A stretch of 44,271 nt of DNA from Desulfobacterales bacterium (GTDB lineage: Bacteria > Desulfobacterota > Desulfobacteria > Desulfobacterales > UBA11574), in contig JBAUWG010000584.1 of assembly GCA_049583675.1 (NCBI GenBank), forward strand, positions 1 through 44,271, in the 5' to 3' direction. Under the pieces are notes generated by a model. The model made no database searches. It saw only the letters and a list, made by a program, of their open reading frames with translations, and had not been told where the DNA came from. The position numbers were made by a program, and so were the translations under genes. This document shows, one piece after another, positions 9,348 through 32,543 of this stretch. How positions within the stretch are numbered: the first letter of the stretch is position 1; the number at the start of each line of letters is the position of its first letter.

Positions 9348-10268
9348 ATGCGTATCATACTGGTCGGCCAGGCGGCATTCGGCGCAAAGGTTTTGGAAAG
9401 GCTGCTGGAGCGAAATGAAAACATCGTAGGGGTTTATACGCCGCCGGATGGACCGGGAGGACGGCCTGATCCCCTCAAGGATGCGGCGATCGCCAGGAAC
9501 ATCGATGTTTTTCAGCCCCAAACGTATAAAGATGACGCGGTTTTTGCCGAATACAAGAAGTTGAATCCCGATCTCACCGTCATGGCGTTTGTTACGACGA
9601 TTACACCGACGCGTTTTTTTGACGTTCCCTCTTACGGCACCATCTGTTATCATCCGTCTCTCTTGCCGCGTCATCGCGGCGCCAGCGGCATTAACTGGGC
9701 CGTGATTATGGGGGACAGCAAAACCGGATTAAGCATCTTCTGGCCGGACGAGGGTATCGATACCGGCCCAATACTTCTTCAAAAAGAGATCGCCATCGGA
9801 CCGGATGACACCACCGGTTCCCTCTATTTCAACCATCTCTTTCCCATGGGGGTTGATGCGGTTTTAGAGTCCATTGATCTGATAAAGGCGGGCAATGCTC
9901 CCAAAATCGTTCAGGACGAAGCCGGGGCTACCTATGAACCGCCTTGCGATGACCGGGTGGCGGACATCAATTGGAAAAAACCGGCAAATGAGCTTTACAA
10001 CCTGATTCGCGGGTGTGACCCTCAACCCGGTGCTTTTGCAGTGTTGAAAGGGGAAAAAATTCGGTTTTACAATGCGAAACGCGTCGAAAAAATTGCGGAT
10101 GAAGCCCCGGGAACCATACTGGATATTACGGATAAAGGGATTCACATGGCGTTATCCGGGGGACAGCTGATGGTGGGAAAGATAAGACCCGCAAAAGGCC
10201 CAAAAGCAGCAGCAGCTGAATTCGCTGCCGAGAGGGGATTAAAAGCCGGAGACAGGTTTGACACATAA
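9348..10268 (+). CDS. Formyltransferase-fold protein (Fmt-like; resembles the N-terminal hydrolase domain of 10-formyl-THF dehydrogenase)
   Basis: 306 aa with RBS AAGGAGG at about 9334-9340. Motifs: MRIILVGQAAFG, YHPSLLPRHRGASGINWAVIMGDSKTGLSIFWPDEGIDTGPILLQKE (catalytic His and Asp of the formyltransferase fold), and an Fmt-type C-terminal domain. No def gene is adjacent. Confidence 0.75.
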   Translation: MRIILVGQAAFGAKVLERLLERNENIVGVYTPPDGPGGRPDPLKDAAIARNIDVFQPQTYKDDAVFAEYKKLNPDLTVMAFVTTITPTRFFDVPSYGTICYHPSLLPRHRGASGINWAVIMGDSKTGLSIFWPDEGIDTGPILLQKEIAIGPDDTTGSLYFNHLFPMGVDAVLESIDLIKAGNAPKIVQDEAGATYEPPCDDRVADINWKKPANELYNLIRGCDPQPGAFAVLKGEKIRFYNAKRVEKIADEAPGTILDITDKGIHMALSGGQLMVGKIRPAKGPKAAAAEFAAERGLKAGDRFDT

Positions 10269-10343: not shown

Positions 10344-10382
10344 AAAGGCCTTTGAAAAACGGTGAATTTTTCAAAGGCCTTT
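10344..10382. terminator. Bidirectional terminator hairpin between convergent genes (fmt-like and fdhA)
   Basis: AAAGGCCTTTGAAAAA (10344-10359), loop CGGTGAA, TTTTTCAAAGGCCTTT (10367-10382). This is a perfect 16-bp stem. It is flanked by an A-run and ATTTTTTA, so it has a U-tract on both strands. Confidence 0.8.
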
Positions 10383-10408: not shown

Positions 10409-12445
10409 TCAAGCGGCTTTTTCGATTTTTGCCGCACAGACTTTAAACTCCGGAATTTTGGCAATCGGATCAAAGGCGGAATTGGTCAGTATGTTGGCCG
10501 GACTTTCTGCAAAATGAAACGGAACGAAAAGCACGCCGGGCTTGACCTTTTTGCCGACTTGGGCAACAGCTTCCATCTCTCCCCTGCGGGTGGCAAGATG
10601 CACCCTGTCACCGTCATTAACGCCCAACGTTTTTGCGTCTTTTAGGTTGATTTCTACGTATCCGGTTTTCTGCTCGGTGTGCAAATGCGGGGAGACGCGC
10701 GTCATGGTGCCGGTATGGAAATGAGCGAACATCCTGCCGGTGGTGAGCCAATAGGGGTATTCGTCATCCGGCATCTCCGCAGGATCAAGATATTCAATGG
10801 CATGGAATAGGCCCTTTCCGCGGGTGAATTGATCTTTATGTAAAAACGGCGTACCCGGATGCTCGGCGTTCGGGCAGGGCCATTGAAGTCCGTCAAGACC
10901 TATCCTTTCATACGTCATTCCGCCGTAACTCGGTGTCAAAGCGGCCATTTCGTTAAAGATTTTTTCAGGACTCTCATAATTCATTTCATAGCCCATAGCT
11001 TTAGATAATCTGGAAATGATTTCCCAATCGTTAAGCGTATTTTCGATGGGATCAATGGCTTTATTCACCTTCATACAGCGTCGTTCGGTATTGGTAAATG
11101 TCCCTTCCTTTTCGGCCACCGAAACCCCGGCAAATACCACATCCGCCTTCTGTGCGGTTTCAGTGATATAAATATCCTGACACACCAGGAACTCAAGATT
11201 TGCAAGGGCCTTGTCGAGATGGTTCTGGTCTGGATCGCTTACTTTCGGATTCTCACCGATGACATAAAGGGCCTTTAATTTACCATCAATCATGGCTTGA
11301 ATCATATCGGTGACGGTATAACCAATCTTGTTCGAAAGCGGTTTTCCCCATGCTTTGGAAAATTTTTCAGTGTTGGCCTCAACGGTCACCGGCTGATAGG
11401 CAGGAAACACATTGGGCAAGCCGCCCATGTCGCAGGCGCCCTGAACATTGTTTTGGCCTCTCAAGGGATTCACACCGCCGCTTTTGACGCCCACATTTCC
11501 GCAAAGCATAGCGATATTGCAGCAGGATTTTACATTGTCCACGCCTGTGGTGTGCTGGGTAATCCCCATGGCATAGAGTAATGCTGCCGGGGAATTAGTG
11601 GCATAAAGCTCGGCCATTTTTTCAAGATCACTTTGCGCCACACCCGTGATGGTTTCAACCTTATCCGGTGTATACGACTCGACCACCGCCTTAAAATCAT
11701 CAAACCCCTCGGTTCTATTTTCAATGTAAGTTTTGTCGTGCCAGCCGTTCTTGAGAATAATATGCATCATGCCGTTAAGCAACGCCACATCACTCCCAAG
11801 TCTATGATGGACGACAACATCCGCAAAACGGGCCATCTGGATATCTCTGGGATCGGCCACAATGAGTTTGGCGCCTTTTTCCTTGGCCCTGAAGACACGC
11901 CGGGCAATGAGCGGATGGCACGCGGATGTGTTCGAACCGATGATAAAAATAGACGCTGAATCTTCAAATTCGGCAATGGAATTGGTCATGGCCCCACTTC
12001 CAAATGCAGCGGCAAGACCTGCCACCGTGGAGGAATGTCAGAGCCGGGCGCAGTGGTCCACATTGTTGGTCCCGATCACTGCTCTGGCAAATTTTTGGGC
12101 CAGGTAATTCTCTTCATTGGTGATTTTTGCGGAAGCCAGCACACCGACACTATCCGGCCCATGGTCATTAATGATGCTCTTGAATTTGTCGGCCGTCACT
12201 TGTATGGCCTCGTCCCATGTCACTTCCTGCAATTCTCCGTTCTTTTTTATCAAAGGTGATTTAAGACGCTTCTCGCTGACGACATGTTCATGAAGGTTCC
12301 ATCCCTTAATGCAGAGTCTTCCCTGGTTCACCGGATGGGTTTTCATGGGCATGGTATCAATAAGCCGGCCGTCCAGCACTTGAAAAAGGACACCGCAACC
12401 GGTGCCGCAATATGAACATGTTGAAGGAATGATTTTAAAATCCAT
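10409..12445 (-). CDS. fdhA: Formate dehydrogenase catalytic subunit, selenocysteine-containing, cytoplasmic (FdhF-like; Mo/W-bis-MGD)
   Basis: Track ORFs 12038..12445 and 10409..12025 are one gene. Reading the minus strand gives ...NNVDHCARL-TGA(12040-12038)-HSSTVAGLAAAFGSGAMTNS, the canonical FdhA Sec site. The N-terminal CSYCGTGCG...C motif binds a 4Fe-4S cluster. There is no twin-arginine signal. Total length is about 678 codons. Confidence 0.95.
12007..12027 (-). promoter_or_regulatory. SECIS-like hairpin for the fdhA UGA
   Basis: The minus-strand RNA is CGGUGGCA-GGUCU-UGCCGCUG. It forms an 8-bp stem (2 G.U pairs) with apical loop GGUCU, starting 10 nt after the UGA. The core GCAGGUCUUGC resembles the E. 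coli fdhF SECIS apex GCAGGUCUGC. Confidence 0.75.
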
Positions 12446-13342: not shown

Positions 13343-13825
13343 TCATCCTCCCTCTATGCTCGCAGTATCTTGCGCTGCTTCGCTTAAACTCATTACGGCG
13401 GACATGTCAAATTCGCCGGACAGAGGGCTGGGGCCTAATGATTTTATTTTATTTGTAAAATGGGTGACAACCTGCACAAATTTTTGGGCTTCTGCCGAAG
13501 ATATCCAGTCCAAATGCAGCCGGCCTTCCAATCCCATAAAGGCCAATAGTTCCTGCAGAAAGGTCATCCGTTTGATCGTCATGTAATTACCATACAGGTA
13601 ATGGCAGTCGCCGACATGTCACCCGCCCACCAGGACTCCGTCGGCACCGCTTTGAAAGGCTCTTAAAATGTGATGCGGCGACACCGTGGCGGAACACATG
13701 ACCCGAATAGGACGAATATTGGGCGGGTATGCCAGTCGACTGACACCCGCCAGGTCCGCCGCGCCGTAGGCACACCAGTTACACATAAATGCGATGATTT
13801 TCGGCTCGAATTTATCCTCGTTCAC
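13343..13825 (-). CDS. mvhD: MvhD/FlpD-type (methyl-viologen-reducing hydrogenase delta subunit-like) protein, selenocysteine-containing
   Basis: Track ORFs 13619..13825 and 13343..13582 join in frame through TGA 13621-13619. The joined sequence reads ...[19 protein letters not shown]...[58 protein letters not shown]... It matches the MvhD GCHxGDCHY core with Sec in place of the first Cys. Total length is 160 codons. Confidence 0.85.
13586..13602 (-). promoter_or_regulatory. SECIS-like hairpin for the mvhD UGA
   Basis: The minus-strand RNA is AUUACC-UGUAU-GGUAAU, a perfect 6-bp stem starting 16 nt after the UGA. It is short and AU-rich, so weaker than the other two. Confidence 0.45.
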
Positions 13826-13846: not shown

Positions 13847-16800
13847 TCAGGCGCTCAATGCGCTCTTGATCTGGGCGTAAAGTTGATTGTTGTTAAAGCC
13901 CATGAGTATGGGCGCCTCCGATGGGCATACCGCCGCGCAGGCACCGCACCCTTTGCACAGGGCCGCATTGACCTTGGCCACATATTCTTGACGGTCGAAA
14001 GTGATGGCGCCATAGGGGCAGACATTGATGCATCCCAGACAGCCCGAACACAATTCAGCCCGAATATCCGTGACAATGCCGCCCACCTTAATGCTCTCCA
14101 AGGACAGAACAGTTGCCGCTCTTGCCGCCGCCGCCTGGGCCTGGGCAATGCTTTCTTCGATGGGCTTGGGATAATGGGCCATGCCGCACAAAAAAATACC
14201 GTCATTGGCAAAATCTACCGGCCTCAATTTTTGATGGGCTTCCAAAAGCCATCCATCCGAATCCAGAGGGACTTTGAAGAGCTGGGCCAGCGATTGATCC
14301 CAATGGGAGACAATGGCGGAGGCCAAACATAAAATATCAGCTTTAACGGCCAATTTTCGGTTGAGTATCCGGTCCGTAAATTCAACGATAACCTGATCGC
14401 CGTTGGCCGTTACCTCGGGTTTTTGATCGACGGAGTACGAAAAAAAGAGCACCCCGGCCGCTCTTGCCTCGCGATATAAATCTTCTTTTTTACCGTATGT
14501 CCGAATATCCCTGTAGAGAATCGCAACATTTATATTTGGATTTCTTTTTTTAAAGTCAATAGCACTTTTGACGGAATGCGTACAGCAAACTTTGGAACAG
14601 TAAGGCCGCTCTTTATCTCTGGATCCCACACACTGAATAAACACTACATTTTCGCTCCGGTCAAGTCTCGGGTCGTTTTTTTTGAAAAGTTCGTCGAGTT
14701 CCAGCAGGGTCAACACAGCATGGTGTTTCCCATAAAGGTATTCGTCGGGTTTATATTCTTTGGCACCGGTGGCGATCACCGCCACGCCATGCTCGATGGT
14801 TTGTGTTGCGTTTTGGCTGTGAAGATCGGTTTTGAAGTTACCGACAAAGCCATCCACATTGCTGATGCTGGTTTCGGTATGAACGGTAATACGATCTTCG
14901 GATTTAACGGTATGAATCAGTGTTTCAACAAAAGCCCCTACATCTTCGTTTTGGGGGGTCTTGTTCAGCATTAAAGCATTTCCGCCCAAAGCGCCGGATT
15001 TCTCCACAAGATCCACCGGATATCCCTGATGTGCCAGCGAAACCGCGGCCGTCATTCCGGCAATTCCTCCGCCGATCACCAACGCGGAATGGGATACCGG
15101 GAGATCGGTCTGCTTCAGGGGCGCTAAAAGGTTGGTTTTCGCAACCGCCATTCGAATGAGGTCCTTGGCTTTTTCAGTGGCGGCGTCCGGATCGTTTGCA
15201 TGGACCCAGGAGTCATGATTCCGAATATTGGCCATTTCAAAGAGATACTTGTTGAGACCCGCGTTAATCAGGGTTTCCTGGAATAGCGGTTCATGGGTTT
15301 TGGGAGTGCAGGCGGCCACAACCACGCGGTTGAGCCCCTGTTGATTGATAATATCGGATATTTTATCCTGGGTATCCTGGCTGCAGCTGAAAAGATTTTC
15401 TTCGACATACACCACATTAGGCAAGGTTTTGGCGTACTTTACCACCTCCGGCACTTTGACCACGCCGCCGATGTTGATCCCGCAGTTGCATACGAACACG
15501 CCGATTTTAGGCGGTTCTTCGCAGACATCTCTTTCAGGGGGGAGTTCAAGGATTTTGGTCCGGGTATTGCGCGCCGATGCCAAGTGTTCTGTTGCCGCAC
15601 AGGCCGAGGCGCTGGCTTCCATCACCGACTGGGGAATATCTTTCGGGCCGGTGAACACACCGCAAGCATAGATGCCTTCCACAGAAGTCCCTACGGGATG
15701 GAAACTATCGGTTTTTGTAAAGCGGTATTCATCGAGATCGATGCCGATACGTTTGGAAAGATCTGCAATATCCTGATTGATTTCAAGGCCTACGGACAGA
15801 ACGAACATATCGAAAATTTCGTCTCTGATGGTTCCGTCCTCCTCGATGTATCGAACCGACACATCATCGGTTCCCGGAACCGGGGCAATGGTGTGAATTC
15901 GTGATCGGACGAATTTGACCCCTTGCCTCCTGGCATTCTCATAATATTTATCAAAATCTTTGCCGTGGGTTCGCATATCCATGTAAAAAACCGCGCAGTC
16001 GAGAGGGTTCTTACTGTGTTCCGTTGCGATGACGGTCTGTTTAATGGCATACATACAGCACACCGATGAACAGTAGGCATTATCACAACGGTTGAGGTCC
16101 CTGGAACCGACACATTGCAACCAACCGATTTTTTGAGGTTCCTTGTGATCGGATGGTCTGACCAAATGACCTGAAAAGGGTCCGGTGGCGGAGAGAATCC
16201 GTTCAAATTCCAAAGAGGTAACCACATTGGGCAGATGGGTATAGGCATAGGTGTCAAACCGGCTGGGGTCAAAGGCGTCAAATCCGGGGGCCAGGACAAT
16301 GGATCCAACGTCAAGCTCGACAATTTCATCTTTCTGTGAATGATCGATGGCGCCGACCGGACAAAAATCGGCGCATATCTTGCATTCGCCGGTCTTGAAA
16401 TGAACGCATTTGCTCCGGTCGATGGCGGGCGTATTGGGAACGGCTTGGGCATACGGCACATAGATCGGTTTCCGGCCTTTAAGACCGGCATCATATTCCG
16501 AGGGAATCTTTTTAACCGTGTAAGTGGTAATGTTATCTTTGATCTTATCCAGGGTAATGTGCCCTGTGGGGCAAACAGTAGCACAGGCGCCGCAAGCCAT
16601 ACAGACATCCGTCTGAATGTGAAAGGGGGTGTCCACTTTCATCTCCACCCCTCGGCCGGTGAGGCTGATGGCGCTGTTGCCCATTCTTTGACAGATTCTT
16701 GTACAGAGGCCGCAAAGGATGCAGGTGTCACCTTTAATCTTAAAGCGTGGTTTTTCGATACCGTATTTTGCCGCAAGCGCCTTTATGACAGGGATTTCCG

Positions 16801-17089
16801 GACAGCGGGCCAGCAACAACTCAACATTTAGTTTTCGACCTTCGTGTACTGTTTCCGTGTTGGTTTTGACTTCCATGCCTTCCCAGATGGGATAGTTGCA
16901 TGCGGTGACAAACCGAGTCCGGCGACCGTCAAAAAGCTCCACGGTGCAAAGTCGGCACATTCCGGCGGGCTCGAGTGCTTTATGATGACACAGCGTTGGA
17001 ATTTCAACCCCATATTTTTCAGCAACTTGAAGGATATACTGCCCTTCTTCTCCCTGAACTTTTTGTCCGTTGAGCTTAAACGTAATCAT
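13847..17089 (-). CDS. Multidomain FeS flavoprotein: HydA/NuoG-type N-terminus fused to a truncated HdrA unit and a second HdrA-like FAD unit
   Basis: 1080 aa.
- Residues 1-about 95: 2Fe-2S domain (MITFKLNGQKV...PTLCHH...GMCRLCTVEL).
- Two 4Fe-4S motifs (CILCGLCTRIC, CMACGACATVCPTGHI).
- HdrA inserted-ferredoxin second half and thioredoxin-reductase-fold core (RKPIYVPYAQAVP, CVHFKTGECKICADFCPVGAI, VGSIVLAPGF, LEFERILSATGPFSGH, WLQCVGSRD..YCSSVCCMYAIK, MDMRTHGKDF, YACGVFTGPKDIPQS).
- A Cys-rich domain (IGVFVCNCGINIGG...VVVAACTPKTHEPLF).
- A second complete FAD unit (ALVIGGGIAGMTAAVSLA...FIQCVGSRDKERPYCSKVCCTHSVK...GIFLCGMAHYPKPIEES).
- A C-terminal 2x4Fe-4S domain (CSGCLGCINVCP, CKGCGACAAVCP). 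Confidence 0.85.
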   Translation of the reverse strand: MITFKLNGQKVQGEEGQYILQVAEKYGVEIPTLCHHKALEPAGMCRLCTVELFDGRRTRFVTACNYPIWEGMEVKTNTETVHEGRKLNVELLLARCPEIPVIKALAAKYGIEKPRFKIKGDTCILCGLCTRICQRMGNSAISLTGRGVEMKVDTPFHIQTDVCMACGACATVCPTGHITLDKIKDNITTYTVKKIPSEYDAGLKGRKPIYVPYAQAVPNTPAIDRSKCVHFKTGECKICADFCPVGAIDHSQKDEIVELDVGSIVLAPGFDAFDPSRFDTYAYTHLPNVVTSLEFERILSATGPFSGHLVRPSDHKEPQKIGWLQCVGSRDLNRCDNAYCSSVCCMYAIKQTVIATEHSKNPLDCAVFYMDMRTHGKDFDKYYENARRQGVKFVRSRIHTIAPVPGTDDVSVRYIEEDGTIRDEIFDMFVLSVGLEINQDIADLSKRIGIDLDEYRFTKTDSFHPVGTSVEGIYACGVFTGPKDIPQSVMEASASACAATEHLASARNTRTKILELPPERDVCEEPPKIGVFVCNCGINIGGVVKVPEVVKYAKTLPNVVYVEENLFSCSQDTQDKISDIINQQGLNRVVVAACTPKTHEPLFQETLINAGLNKYLFEMANIRNHDSWVHANDPDAATEKAKDLIRMAVAKTNLLAPLKQTDLPVSHSALVIGGGIAGMTAAVSLAHQGYPVDLVEKSGALGGNALMLNKTPQNEDVGAFVETLIHTVKSEDRITVHTETSISNVDGFVGNFKTDLHSQNATQTIEHGVAVIATGAKEYKPDEYLYGKHHAVLTLLELDELFKKNDPRLDRSENVVFIQCVGSRDKERPYCSKVCCTHSVKSAIDFKKRNPNINVAILYRDIRTYGKKEDLYREARAAGVLFFSYSVDQKPEVTANGDQVIVEFTDRILNRKLAVKADILCLASAIVSHWDQSLAQLFKVPLDSDGWLLEAHQKLRPVDFANDGIFLCGMAHYPKPIEESIAQAQAAAARAATVLSLESIKVGGIVTDIRAELCSGCLGCINVCPYGAITFDRQEYVAKVNAALCKGCGACAAVCPSEAPILMGFNNNQLYAQIKSALSA

Positions 17090-19619: not shown

Positions 19620-20003
19620 TTAACCGTGTGCCTGATACATCACCGGACAGTTTTCAACGCAATTACCGCATCCCGTGCAAAGGTCCATGTTGATGCTGCG
19701 AGCATGCTTTCTAACCTTTACTTTAAAATGCCCTGCAGATCCTTCAACAGATTCTAGATCCGCATATGTGATAATCTCAATATTCAGATGCCGGCCGACC
19801 TCGACCAGTTTCGGGGAGATAATTCACATGGCGCAATCATTGGTGGGGAACGTCTTGTCCAGTTGGGACATTACCCCGCCGATGGAAGGGGATTTTTCTA
19901 CGAGATAGACGTAATATCCTGCGTTGGCGAGATCCAGAGCGGATTGCATCCCTGCAATTCCACCCCCTAAAACCAGAACCGATCCGATTACATCATTGGC
20001 CAT
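19620..20003 (-). CDS. hdrA: HdrA N-terminal fragment protein (FAD GxGxxG fold plus Sec site plus one 4Fe-4S motif), selenocysteine-containing; not in the supplied ORF track
   Basis: Codon-by-codon translation of the minus strand from ATG 20003 gives [60 protein letters not shown](TGA 19826-19824)[70 protein letters not shown](19622-19620). The RBS GGAGGA (20016-20011) lies 7 nt upstream. The context TFPTxDCxM-U-I matches the known HdrA Cys/Sec position. Confidence 0.8.
19791..19808 (-). promoter_or_regulatory. SECIS-like hairpin for the hdrA-fragment UGA
   Basis: The minus-strand RNA is CUGGUCG-AGGU-CGGCCGG. It forms a 7-bp stem (2 G.U pairs) with a GGU-containing tetraloop, starting 15 nt after the UGA. 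Confidence 0.6.
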
Positions 20004-30468: not shown

Positions 30469-32250
30469 TTAAAATCCCTTCGATGGTAAGGGTTCGCCTT
30501 TTTCATCCCATCCGCGTTCTTTATAATATTCGGATAGAAGCTGTTTCATTTGATCTTCGGTAATAATTTTATTGGTTTCAGGCAGCGCTTCTCTAAAAAA
30601 TCTTCGTGGGATGCAATCATCTTCTGGCGTGAGACCTTCTCTTAAATTAAACCGTCTGATGTTGTCAAGAATGTCACCGGCAATGGTTCGCATTCCTTGA
30701 GCGGTGAGATCCATGCCGGTTGTTGTTCGAATTATGGCGGAAAGTTCATCCCACTGGTAAAGATCCCGATAAAAGCGGCACAAAATCAGGGCATCAAAAA
30801 TCGTCAGACGGTCTTCCCATTCTGTAAACATTTTGGCCTTTCCGTCGATCCGGTCAGGTTCGATGAGCCCGGCCAGTTCGGGTTTGTAGAATGTGGCGCG
30901 AAGGTGGCAGGCGCCTCTGGCTGATGTCCCATAAGCCAGACCCATTCCTTTCAGCACCCGAGGGTCATAGCCTGCCGGCTCGAGGCCTTTGACATGAATG
31001 GCTTGATCTTCCATGTTCCAGGCTTTGGCCGCATATTTGATTCCTCTGGCCAGTACATCGCCGATACCGCGACGCCGGGCGGTATCATCTAAAAGCCTTG
31101 CCACGGCATCGACCTGGCCATAGTCCAGCGTCTCATCGATTTTTCCTTGTCGGGAGGCTTCGATGGCCAATGCCGCCAGATTGCCTCCGCTGATCGTATC
31201 CATGCCGAGGCGATCGCAGATATCATTTAAATAAGCGATTTCCTCGATGCTGTCGATTTCACAAAGACCGCCGAATGCGTAAATAGTTTCATATTCCGGC
31301 CCTTCGACCTTAAGTCCTTTGTGCCTTCCATTTTTGACGGTGGAGAGTCGACCGCAGGCCATAAAACATTTCAGGCAGGCATGGGGTTGGACATCGCATC
31401 TTTCATGAAGGGCCCGGGCATTGATTTTATCGGCATGTTCAAATTGCCCCTTTTTCCAGTACCGGGTGGGGAATCCGCCGGCCTTGTTCATGATATCCAC
31501 CAACATGGGCGTACCCATGCTTTTGTATGCTTTTACGCCGGCATCGTCTTTTGACCGCTGTGCTATGGATTTGGCGAAAGTTTTCATCCCATCGACGTCG
31601 GCAAATTCCTTTTTCCGGTTTCCCCAAAAGGCAAAGGCTTTGATATTTTTTGAACCTGCGACCGCCCCAACACCGGTTCGGCCCGCACTGCGCCAGTAAT
31701 CGTTTTCGAGGACCGCAAAACTGACCTTGTTTTCGCCGGCCGGTCCGATACAGACCACCCCGCACCTTTTCGCGTCCGGACGATGTTGTTTGATCCACGC
31801 CTTGACGCGGTCTTCTGTTTCATATGTGTCTTTTCCCCAGAGATCATCAGCCGGATGGAACCACACTTTTTCTTCTCCAATCTCTATCCAGACAGGGCTT
31901 GGGGCGGCACCGCCGATCATGACGGCATCGAATCCCGTAGCACTCATGTGGTCGGCGACGGTTCCTCCTGAATAAGATTCGGAGAAAAAGCCGGTCTGGG
32001 GAGACTTGGTGAATACCCCGTGACGGCAGGAGCCCCAGATCGCGCTCCCGGTCAACGGACCGATGGCAAATATCAAATGATTTTCAGGGCTCAACGGATC
32101 CACGCCCGGCGGATTGTGGCGAAGCAACAGATCGGTGGCGAGCCCTCTTCCGCCCAGATTGGTTTTCAAAATAAAGTCATCTATTGGCGCGATGCGATAC
32201 ATTTCTTTATTCAAATTAATTTTTAGAATTTTTCCATAAAATCCGTACAT
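30469..32250 (-). CDS. Aldehyde:ferredoxin oxidoreductase (tungstopterin AOR family)
   Basis: Track ORF 30469..32265. The preferred start is ATG 32250 (MYGFYGKILKINL), preceded by AGAGGA. AOR N-terminal domain: GGRGLATDLL, GPLTGS. Catalytic domain: motifs including CLKCFMACGR, EGPEYETIYAFGGLC and GACHLRA. Confidence 0.9.
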   Translation of the reverse strand: MYGFYGKILKINLNKEMYRIAPIDDFILKTNLGGRGLATDLLLRHNPPGVDPLSPENHLIFAIGPLTGSAIWGSCRHGVFTKSPQTGFFSESYSGGTVADHMSATGFDAVMIGGAAPSPVWIEIGEEKVWFHPADDLWGKDTYETEDRVKAWIKQHRPDAKRCGVVCIGPAGENKVSFAVLENDYWRSAGRTGVGAVAGSKNIKAFAFWGNRKKEFADVDGMKTFAKSIAQRSKDDAGVKAYKSMGTPMLVDIMNKAGGFPTRYWKKGQFEHADKINARALHERCDVQPHACLKCFMACGRLSTVKNGRHKGLKVEGPEYETIYAFGGLCEIDSIEEIAYLNDICDRLGMDTISGGNLAALAIEASRQGKIDETLDYGQVDAVARLLDDTARRRGIGDVLARGIKYAAKAWNMEDQAIHVKGLEPAGYDPRVLKGMGLAYGTSARGACHLRATFYKPELAGLIEPDRIDGKAKMFTEWEDRLTIFDALILCRFYRDLYQWDELSAIIRTTTGMDLTAQGMRTIAGDILDNIRRFNLREGLTPEDDCIPRRFFREALPETNKIITEDQMKQLLSEYYKERGWDEKGEPLPSKGF

Positions 32251-32543
32251 GCTCATCCTCTTCATTTTTTAAACAAAAATCCTGGCCAAGGGGCCGTTCC
32301 AGAAGAAATTTGCTTTACTGAGTGTTCGTTTTAGAAAATCAGAAATAGGAATTGGAAAATAGATAACTGCGTATGGACGTAAATATAATTAGAAGATGAG
32401 GAGGTTAGGAAGTTAGAAGTTTGGAAATCACGTAAATGTGCTGACCTTCTAATCTTCTTGCTTTCTTATTTTTCGAAATATTTGTGTTCATTCGTATTCA
32501 TCCATGCTTTCCTCTTTCCTTTTTGCTCTTTTCTATTAGGAAC

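Follow-up and report, generated by a model that had tools for sequence, protein, structure and literature searches.

What kind of protein results when the electron entry domain of one family of bifurcating enzymes is joined to the flavin-containing subunit of another, and from where does it obtain the parts that it appears to lack? The question is raised by a 1080-residue protein encoded on contig JBAUWG010000584.1 of a Desulfobacterales bacterium (UBA11574; assembly GCA_049583675.1), analyzed over a stretch of 44,271 nt (the window). A BfuA-like iron-sulfur domain is followed by an HdrA-like unit without its flavin-binding head (unit 1) and by a second, differently reduced HdrA-like unit (unit 2). 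We find that the head of unit 1 is encoded by a separate selenoprotein gene upstream. This architecture is near-certain; in the direction of electron flow and the wiring our confidence is somewhat under one half.

The 1080-residue open reading frame (ORF) is real, and its ATG lies 27 nt past the stop codon of a nuoF-like gene. Domains were called with Pfam, sequence matches to known structures were obtained with phmmer against PDB sequences, and fold matches came from a Foldseek search of an AlphaFold2 model. Canonical HdrA (5ODC, 654 residues) maps by phmmer onto the fusion as three pieces in shuffled order. Its residues 259-511 match fusion residues 194-451, and the C-terminal flavin adenine dinucleotide (FAD) segment GIYACGVFTGPKDIP comes next, so that the body of unit 1 covers HdrA 259-~567; residues 2-234 match 525-756, and residues 514-648 match 944-1076, including the C-terminal 2x[4Fe-4S] domain. 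Because 5ODC 2-234 aligns to 525-756, the Cys-rich CNCGINIGG...AACTPKTHEP region is the N-terminal [4Fe-4S] HdrA domain of unit 2. Residues 4-337 of sHdrA (6TJR) align without interruption to residues 669-992. Pfam identified Fer2_4 [2Fe-2S] (residues 1-78), a Fer4 dicluster (117-179), one Rossmann/Pyr_redox_2 start (residue 669) and a C-terminal Fer4 dicluster (1010-1059), with no Fer4_20 or GltD-type Pyr_redox_2 match in the fusion. No GxGxxG occurs in the fusion before residue 673. The six-part domain order put forward in a first-pass annotation is thus borne out, including its claims that the first unit has no Rossmann motif and that the second lacks the ferredoxin insert.

Identity to methanogen HdrA is 34-37%. 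Foldseek matched the model to HdrA chains with a template modeling (TM) score of 0.74-0.75 over ~650 columns and to sHdrA with a TM score of 0.84. The single-chain model, built from a 98-sequence alignment, has a mean predicted local distance difference test (pLDDT) score of 71.8, with values of 80-95 in unit 2 and moderate values in the unit-1 core. NCBIfam has no model for the fusion architecture; the best match was to HdrA2 (789 bits, below the cutoff of 1100).

The N-terminal domain had been described as HydA/NuoG-type. It is an iron-sulfur entry domain, as claimed, while the His-ligated cluster of HydA and NuoG is not part of it: the A3 site is absent from residues 1-183, which fall ~25 residues short of HydA at the A3-binding region. 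The closest match is to WorA (9MQX_A residues 21-184, E = 7e-41), to which the 183 residues align without gaps. Motifs for A1, A2 and A4 are present, with low AlphaFold2 confidence there for residues 120-179. The same set without A3 is found in BamI, HytD and WorA; in WorABCSL, electrons enter BfuA at A4 (PMC12318220). Only 17-22 residues separate the last BfuA motif from the HdrA segment.

The head of unit 1 was located by a tblastn search of the window with the head of unit 2. A second match (19982-19722, minus strand) led to a 127-residue gene that does not appear in ORF lists of the window, as these break at its in-frame UGA (19824-19826). With Cys put for selenocysteine (Sec), the product corresponds to HdrA 145-258 (E = 1e-42 to 1e-46). 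It carries GGGIAG (residues 13-18), C57-A-M-U60 and the first CxxCxxCxxxCP motif of the inserted ferredoxin; the gene begins after a strong AAGGAGG Shine-Dalgarno sequence before the ATG and ends with TAA (19620-19622). The head ends at HdrA 258 and the fusion resumes at 259, so the split is seamless and falls between the two CxxCxxCxxxCP motifs. Fusion residues 194-250 are therefore an orphan half, the partner ferredoxin motif being carried by the head protein. A Sec fragment separate from the fusion, as anticipated in the first-pass annotation, does exist and supplies the missing Rossmann motif in trans. We had considered MvhD as that fragment, and also a circular permutation in which the Rossmann head at residues 660-757 serves unit 1; both were dropped once the separate head gene was found.

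Comparative nucleotide analysis supports the reading of the head UGA as Sec. At this codon, 49 related head sequences have Cys and 27 have TGA. All 21 nt of a putative selenocysteine insertion sequence (SECIS) downstream of it are invariant in 24 Sec-type orthologues, third-codon positions included; flanking synonymous sites vary, and the block is not conserved in the 49 Cys-type orthologues. Single-sequence RNA folding gave z-scores near zero, and the evidence for the SECIS is thus the comparative one. Public gene callers cut the head at the UGA (19824-20003), leaving a fragment of 59 residues. Exact copies of this fragment are found on 86 contigs, and the most informative name given to them is 'heterodisulfide reductase subunit A-like polyferredoxin'.

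The short database fragment and the unremarkable z-scores could also be taken to mean that the gene is decaying, or that an assembly or frameshift artefact has made the split, in which case the head would not be made and unit 1 would be flavin-free. Comparison across genomes brings this explanation close to refutation. A scan of GTDB species genomes returned at least 595 related stretches, from which 80 loci were fetched. The separate head gene (56-88% identical) is present in 48 of the 51 loci with at least 3.3 kb of upstream DNA, nuoE in 48 and nuoF in 49 of the same loci, in the same gene order (head-nuoE-nuoF-fusion-mvhD), and in each the head stop falls right after the first ferredoxin motif. 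The alignment of the UGA with Cys, the 21 nt invariant at synonymous sites and the strong Shine-Dalgarno sequence all argue against decay, as does a natural in-frame fusion of the head to NuoE (292 residues, Cys for Sec) in a Pirellulales metagenome-assembled genome (MAG; locus L036, 2094-2972). In the same locus hdrC-hdrB lie upstream and mvhD-mvhG-mvhA downstream, and ~2.8 kb of regulatory-looking genes (CBS/HATPase-like and PHP-like) separate nuoF from the fusion.

In protein databases, more than 120 clusters (90% identity), with lengths of 1076-1088 residues, match the query over its full extent (63-98% identity); their annotations go no further than 'FAD-dependent oxidoreductase' or 'heterodisulfide reductase subunit A'. 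Since the split arrangement is frequent in databases, it is not an oddity of one genome. The first-pass annotation had raised the prospect of a common, already characterized family such as HdrL or Qmo. Common it is, with the BfuA::HdrA fusion in 67 of the 80 loci; it is not a characterized HdrL/Qmo protein. The loci come from lineages that include Desulfobacterales, Desulfatiglandales, Spirochaetales, Planctomycetota, Fibrobacterota, Cloacimonadota and Armatimonadota, and further Gemmatimonadota, Acidobacteriota-related MAGs, Altiarchaeales and Thermoplasmata. We identified no cultured host of the split form among the fetched loci.

Which of the two units could bifurcate? Conservation was read in 98 family members and across the 80 loci. 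In unit 1, C326, C340, C344, C345 and K350 ('CCMYAIK') are invariant in the 98 sequences. Together with the head, unit 1 has the Cys194/Cys(Sec)197 pair of canonical HdrA (head C57/U60), the Cys386/399/403/404 site and Lys409. Both motifs of the inserted ferredoxin are also present, on two polypeptides (head C109-C119 and body C228-C243). Unit 2 has the other canonical features, namely the N-terminal 4-Cys domain, Rossmann motif, thioredoxin reductase (TrxR) fold and C-terminal 2x[4Fe-4S] domain, and its Rossmann motif and cluster Cys are kept in the family. The Cys pair is never present in unit 2 in the family, and the ferredoxin insert is absent from it as well. At the Cys-pair stretch of HdrA stands NKTPQNEDVGAF ('NKTPQNEDVGA-F'), with 'NEDVGAF' for 'NDCSIC'. 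GPKDIP is kept in unit 1, whereas unit 2 has 'YPKPI' at that place, and the position equivalent to Lys409 varies in unit 2 (D/E/K/T/H). The predicted flavin-site hallmarks are kept only in the split unit 1, and its Cys/Sec residue comes from the Sec fragment, as the first-pass annotation held. This pattern mirrors BamE, a fused HdrA dimer in which cryo-EM placed a bifurcating FAD in TrxR1 (Lys280, Cys59-Cys62) and a non-bifurcating, structural FAD in TrxR2 (preprint 10.64898/2026.04.10.717634).

Table 1. Features of the fusion gene, the head gene and the remaining operon genes in the window.
Feature	Position	Strand	Evidence
Fusion gene, BfuA-like::HdrA-body::HdrA', 1080 aa	13847..17089	-	ORF, Pfam, phmmer, AlphaFold2/Foldseek
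Minimal BfuA/BamI/WorA-like domain, residues 1-183; [2Fe-2S] A1 and two [4Fe-4S] A2/A4	16541..17089	-	Alignment to WorA
Second half of inserted ferredoxin, residues 194-250; inter-motif segment and cluster motif C228, C236, C239, C243-P	16340..16510	-	5ODC 259 onward; Cys invariant
TrxR1 middle domain, residues 251-512; [4Fe-4S] C326/C340/C344/C345, K350 (= HdrA Lys409), FAD segment GPKDIP	15554..16339	-	phmmer, conservation
HdrA N-terminal domain, residues 525-655; [4Fe-4S] C534/C536/C569/C594	15125..15517	-	phmmer, conservation
Complete TrxR2 unit, residues 660-1000; GGGIAG, cluster C820/C831/C835/C836	14090..15112	-	phmmer, conservation, AlphaFold2, Foldseek
C-terminal 2x[4Fe-4S] ferredoxin domain, residues 1001-1080	13850..14089	-	Pfam, phmmer
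hdrA-head gene, 127 aa, predicted Sec; upstream of nuoE/nuoF	20003..19620	-	tblastn, sequence, ORFs
Putative SECIS hairpin ACUGGUCGAGGUCGGCCGGCA; 7-bp stem, AGGU loop, +18 to +38 from UGA	19789..19809	-	Minimum free energy fold; comparative nucleotides
NuoE/HydC/BfuC-like [2Fe-2S] subunit, 161 aa	19001..19486	-	PF01257, E = 1e-47
NuoF/HydB/BfuB-like subunit, 617 aa	17117..18970	-	Pfam; full-length structure matches
MvhD/FlpD-type [2Fe-2S] adaptor, 160 aa, predicted Sec 'VLVGG-U-HVGDCHY', UGA 13619-13621	13343..13825	-	Pfam; UGA alignment
FdhB-like/FlxC-like iron-sulfur subunit, 265 aa	12544..13341	-	Residues 134-251 match FdhB iron-sulfur domain
Cytoplasmic FdhA, predicted Sec, UGA 12038-12040	10409..12445	-	TIGR01591, 2e-48 and 3e-193 on two halves

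The operon on the minus strand runs head (Sec), BfuC-like, BfuB-like, fusion, MvhD (Sec), FdhB-like and FdhA (Sec); three of its seven genes thus encode selenoproteins. The nuoE-like and nuoF-like genes lie directly upstream of the fusion, in line with the earlier proposal of a covalent fusion between tandem HdrA-like units and an entry domain that has NuoEF-like subunits as partners. The BfuB-like protein comprises an N-terminal thioredoxin-like [2Fe-2S] domain, a flavin mononucleotide (FMN)/NAD(H) core, a [4Fe-4S] cluster and a C-terminal 2x[4Fe-4S] ferredoxin domain. Judged from its full-length matches (7T2R_B, 1.5e-239; 9MQX_B, 5e-236; 8A6T_B, 1e-226), it is of the full HydB/BfuB type. At the position of the mvhD UGA, 44 orthologues have Cys and 21 have TGA. 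Residues 134-251 of the FdhB-like protein match the C-terminal iron-sulfur domain of FdhB in methanogen Fdh-Hdr complexes (9T1S_M, 5.8e-32; also 8RVU_E and 7BKB_E); Pfam found Fer4 matches only, and no FrhB/F420 domain. FdhA has no signal peptide, and an fdhF-like hairpin with an AGGUC loop lies downstream of its UGA.

A scan for promoters and terminators was uninformative apart from a hairpin after fdhA. This 16-bp perfect palindrome with A/T runs (10344-10382), between fdhA and a convergent formyltransferase-like gene (9348-10268, plus strand), is probably a bidirectional terminator. Elsewhere in the window, a 598-residue ORF (30469-32265, minus strand) resembles by eye the aldehyde:ferredoxin oxidoreductase (tungsten AOR) family and shares 25-30% identity with the BamB-like genes found in the unsplit loci described below; its neighborhood, with ABC-transporter and aminotransferase genes, is unrelated.

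The genes that follow mvhD differ among the fetched loci. In 18 loci the module is FlxC-FlxB-FlxA, with DsrC also in 10. One Desulfobacterales locus (L002, DsrC at 14930-15247) and nine others of that order have DsrC directly after mvhD-flxC-flxB-flxA and no hdrBC nearby. Planctomycetota-type loci have MvhG/MvhA after mvhD and HdrC-HdrB upstream, and HdrCB adjoins the fusion locus in many sister loci. FdhA and an FdhB-like protein follow mvhD in the window and in three further loci (L019-L021, including Desulfobacteraceae Eth-SRB2). These three have an in-frame TGA at the codon of window Cys536, which belongs to the four invariant Cys of the N-domain [4Fe-4S] site ('VCH*GINI' versus 'VCNCGINI' in the window; ~9597-9599 in L020). 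It is possible, from the alignment, that this TGA encodes Sec at or beside the cluster ligand.

Head and body are not split in all relatives. In 12 loci, including those of Desulfosarcina variabilis and of MAGs labelled Geobacter and Malonomonas, they form one ORF of ~1000 residues followed by mvhD-nuoE-nuoF and a short nuoG. The window head and body are colinear with the D. variabilis ORF (61% and 46% identity, respectively). An AOR-family (BamB-like) gene lies upstream in seven unsplit loci, and HdrC-like matches adjoin the unsplit gene in four, on its upstream side in three (L053, L064 and L079) and on its downstream side in one (L058). By gene content, the unsplit loci are bam-type clusters. 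The unsplit proteins form one clade in a neighbor-joining tree, which is unrooted and so gives no order of descent between split and unsplit forms. In five loci (L042, L045, L048, L049 and L061), a split copy fused to BfuA lies a few kb from an unsplit BamE-like tandem HdrA, and each of the two has an mvhD of its own. A third configuration, the HdrL type, emerged when 1.8 billion representatives were searched; it is seen in proteins of 1300-1530 residues with the same tandem HdrA body and a GltD-like NAD(P)H module (Fer4_20 and Pyr_redox_2). This module is placed between the two ferredoxin motifs, just before the second (P0154, P0157 and P0163; 1328-1510 residues). In one protein (P0159), a polyferredoxin insert stands in place of the GltD-like module. 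In its gene order, the split arrangement resembles a BamE-like tandem hdrA gene whose inserted-ferredoxin domain has been interrupted by bfuC-bfuB-bfuA.

How might such a complex work? With slightly less than even confidence, we propose that the fusion is the scaffold subunit of a seven-gene, cytoplasmic complex linked to formate dehydrogenase (FDH), in which HdrA-type bifurcation has its low-potential exit wired into a Bfu module. The 127-residue head would dock on fusion residues ~194-512 and rebuild a complete HdrA unit 1, with the bifurcating FAD lying between two polypeptides. In a 2x[4Fe-4S] ferredoxin fold, each cluster is bound by three Cys of one motif and one of the other. As each cluster takes Cys from both motifs, both clusters of the inserted ferredoxin would bridge two chains. 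Unit 2 would be a partner like TrxR2 of BamE, probably with a structural, non-bifurcating FAD, and would contribute the N-domain cluster and the C-terminal ferredoxin on which MvhD docks.

We predict that formate is oxidized at FdhA and that electrons pass via the FdhB-like protein, the [2Fe-2S] cluster of MvhD and the C-terminal ferredoxin clusters to the FAD of unit 1. The low-potential electron would cross the Cys/Sec pair and then the inserted ferredoxin, which is split, and enter the attached BfuA clusters (A4, A2 and A1) directly on its way to BfuBC, which would reduce NAD+ and ferredoxin. The high-potential electron would leave via the C326/C340/C344/C345 cluster to an acceptor that is not encoded in the window; in sister loci it would be HdrBC or DsrC. 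Flx, Mvh and Fdh are the classical mid-potential donors to HdrA via MvhD, HdrBC is the classical high-potential acceptor, and the inserted ferredoxin of HdrA normally reduces free ferredoxin. The variable modules after mvhD and the adjoining HdrCB genes thus fit the canonical ports, with the donor entering via MvhD, HdrBC at the high-potential end and the inserted ferredoxin at the low-potential end.

Several points weigh against this proposal. A plain Fdh-Bfu enzyme is thermodynamically sufficient for formate-dependent reduction of NAD+ and ferredoxin, which leaves the need for an HdrA module without explanation. No HdrB, HdrC, CCG-domain or DsrC gene occurs within the 44-kb window, so the high-potential branch has no visible partner there, although HdrB and HdrC may be encoded in another part of the genome. 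In the AlphaFold2 model, made without the head, pLDDT is below 50 for residues 120-262, and the geometry of this region is unusable. Finally, benzoyl-CoA reductase uses its Bfu module for electron input, and BamI connects that module to the C-terminal ferredoxin rather than the inserted one (preprint 10.64898/2026.04.10.717634), so the opposite direction or another wiring is possible.

Alternatively, bifurcation may occur only at the Bfu FMN/iron-sulfur site, with the tandem HdrA acting as a long wire and one-/two-electron adaptor from FDH to BfuA. The enzyme would then be a formate:NAD+/ferredoxin oxidoreductase of the FdhF2-HylABC type. In its favor, a high-potential acceptor gene is absent from operon and window alike, Fdh-Bfu enzymes with the same overall reaction are known (PMC9304861), and unit 2 of BamE is already held to be structural (preprint 10.64898/2026.04.10.717634). 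Against it, the FAD motifs of unit 1, the invariant K350 and a costly Sec whose SECIS is frozen are all kept across phyla, and the HdrCB or DsrC genes that adjoin many sister loci indicate a working third port. We think a mere wire improbable.

Were the complex to run as benzoyl-CoA reductase does, BfuBC would confurcate electrons from NADH and reduced ferredoxin, and mid-potential electrons would pass via BfuA to the HdrA flavin for bifurcation there. FDH, reached via MvhD and the FdhB-like protein, would be the low-potential output (a CO2 reductase), and another partner would take the high-potential electron. BamGHI is the input in the only characterized enzyme with both modules, and the MvhD-like BamF joins it to BamE. 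The physiology of the host lineage also agrees, as the Desulfobacterales member Desulfobacterium autotrophicum has cytoplasmic FDHs beside hdrA/hdrL-mvhD-fdhB (PMC2702500) and such relatives can grow autotrophically. Yet CO2/formate (-430 mV) needs no potential below that of ferredoxin, and the BfuA domain is tethered by its short linker to the inserted ferredoxin rather than the C-terminal one. Flx, Mvh and Fdh, which follow mvhD, are the canonical donors of Hdr systems, and MvhD here is short (160 residues) and without the BamF extension that contacts BamI. This direction, too, is unlikely in our judgment.

The forward proposal, with formate as donor, can be taken further to the family as a whole. 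It might constitute a distinct, widespread class of 'serial' bifurcating enzymes, in which the low-potential electron of HdrA is never freed to ferredoxin and is injected into the mid-potential port of the Bfu module. The injection may proceed through the two inter-subunit [4Fe-4S] clusters. A single donor (formate, H2 or NAD(P)H) would then drive the simultaneous reduction of three acceptors, namely NAD+, ferredoxin and a thiol/disulfide. Where HdrBC is lacking, as in the window and the FlxCBA-DsrC loci, the Cys-Sec pair of the head might itself reduce a disulfide or DsrC. We regard this generalization as rather doubtful.

The locus combines the two bifurcation modules that were brought together in the 2026 report on benzoyl-CoA reductase, here in another, covalently wired configuration, and this configuration occurs in many anaerobic phyla with exchangeable donors (formate dehydrogenase, [NiFe] hydrogenase and Flx NAD(P)H dehydrogenase). 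It represents a natural experiment on the wiring of the low-potential branch of HdrA, and predicts a flavin site and two Fe-S clusters shared by two polypeptides. It also exposes an annotation gap, in that a 14-kDa selenoprotein is systematically shortened to 59 residues by gene callers. For sulfate reducers, the gene content suggests that the locus probably adds an energy-coupling route among formate, NAD(H) and ferredoxin.

By its architecture the system is neither a canonical HdrA (the head is in trans and unit 2 lacks the hallmarks), nor BamE proper (it is split and has no Bam partners), nor HdrL (it has no GltD domain). In the literature open to our search, which did not include one relevant HdrA review, the split form with its fused BfuA is neither described nor characterized; the searches led to Bam-Bfu, HdrL and type II/III HdrA, and genome papers mention only 'nuoEFG-mvhD'-type clusters, such as the 'nuoEFGmvhD' cluster of Desulfotignum phosphitoxidans. 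With the methanogen HdrABC-MvhAGD and Fdh-Hdr complexes (5ODC, 7BKB, 8RVU) it shares the HdrA fold and cofactor sites and the FdhA-FdhB-MvhD-HdrA chain. Those complexes contain a homodimer of identical HdrA chains, in contrast to the single asymmetric tandem chain with a head in trans found here; in addition, the operon has no HdrBC, FdhB is cut down to its iron-sulfur part, and the inserted ferredoxin is fused to BfuA. In the FlxABCD-HdrABC system of Desulfovibrio (Ramos et al. 2015, as cited by others), MvhD (FlxD) and an FlxC-like iron-sulfur subunit likewise feed HdrA. The window differs from it in having Fdh in place of FlxAB, a tandem and split HdrA, an attached Bfu module and no HdrBC.

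HdrL, first noted in Desulfobacterium autotrophicum (PMC2702500), has an archaeal parallel in the type III HdrA of ANME-1 and Bathyarchaeota (PMC12054007). As in the window, a large HdrA-derived protein is followed by mvhD and sometimes by fdhB-fdhA, and an NAD(P)H-reactive module is located between the two cluster motifs of the inserted ferredoxin. In HdrL and type III HdrA that module is a GltD-like domain, in frame within one polypeptide, whereas the insertion here comprises three Bfu genes and leaves the protein split, with BfuA as the only fused product. To our knowledge, neither HdrL nor type III HdrA has been biochemically characterized.

Within the BfuABC family (HydABC, 8A6T/7P5H; NiFe-HydABCSL, 7T2R; WorABCSL, 9MQX; Nfn/Stn, 8OH5), BfuB and BfuC are full-length, as they are here. 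The third-substrate module on BfuA is here an HdrA-type flavin unit. The 2022 classification of Bfu enzymes describes HdrA, in its main text, only in Bam-Bfu, where it is unfused, and a term search of that text returned no 'Hdr-Bfu' fusion type (PMC9304861). Coupling of HdrA-type and Bfu-type modules in one enzyme was reported in 2026 for class II benzoyl-CoA reductase, and was called unprecedented there (preprint 10.64898/2026.04.10.717634).

The BamE-F-G-H-I core of that enzyme from Geobacter metallireducens is the closest characterized system. BamE has the same succession as head and body combined, with head, inserted ferredoxin, TrxR1, N-domain, TrxR2 without the Cys pair and C-terminal ferredoxin. 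The Bam core also resembles the window in its MvhD-like adaptor, which contains Sec, in its NuoEF module of the HydBC type and in having a minimal, three-cluster NuoG-like subunit. In place of BamB/C (tungsten AOR) and BamD, the window encodes the FdhB-like protein and FdhA after mvhD. Lastly, BamE is a single polypeptide and BamI a separate one, encoded after bamH, whereas here a break within the inserted ferredoxin gives two chains, and the downstream one carries the BamI-like domain as a fusion. The wiring of the Bfu module here probably also differs from that in Bam.

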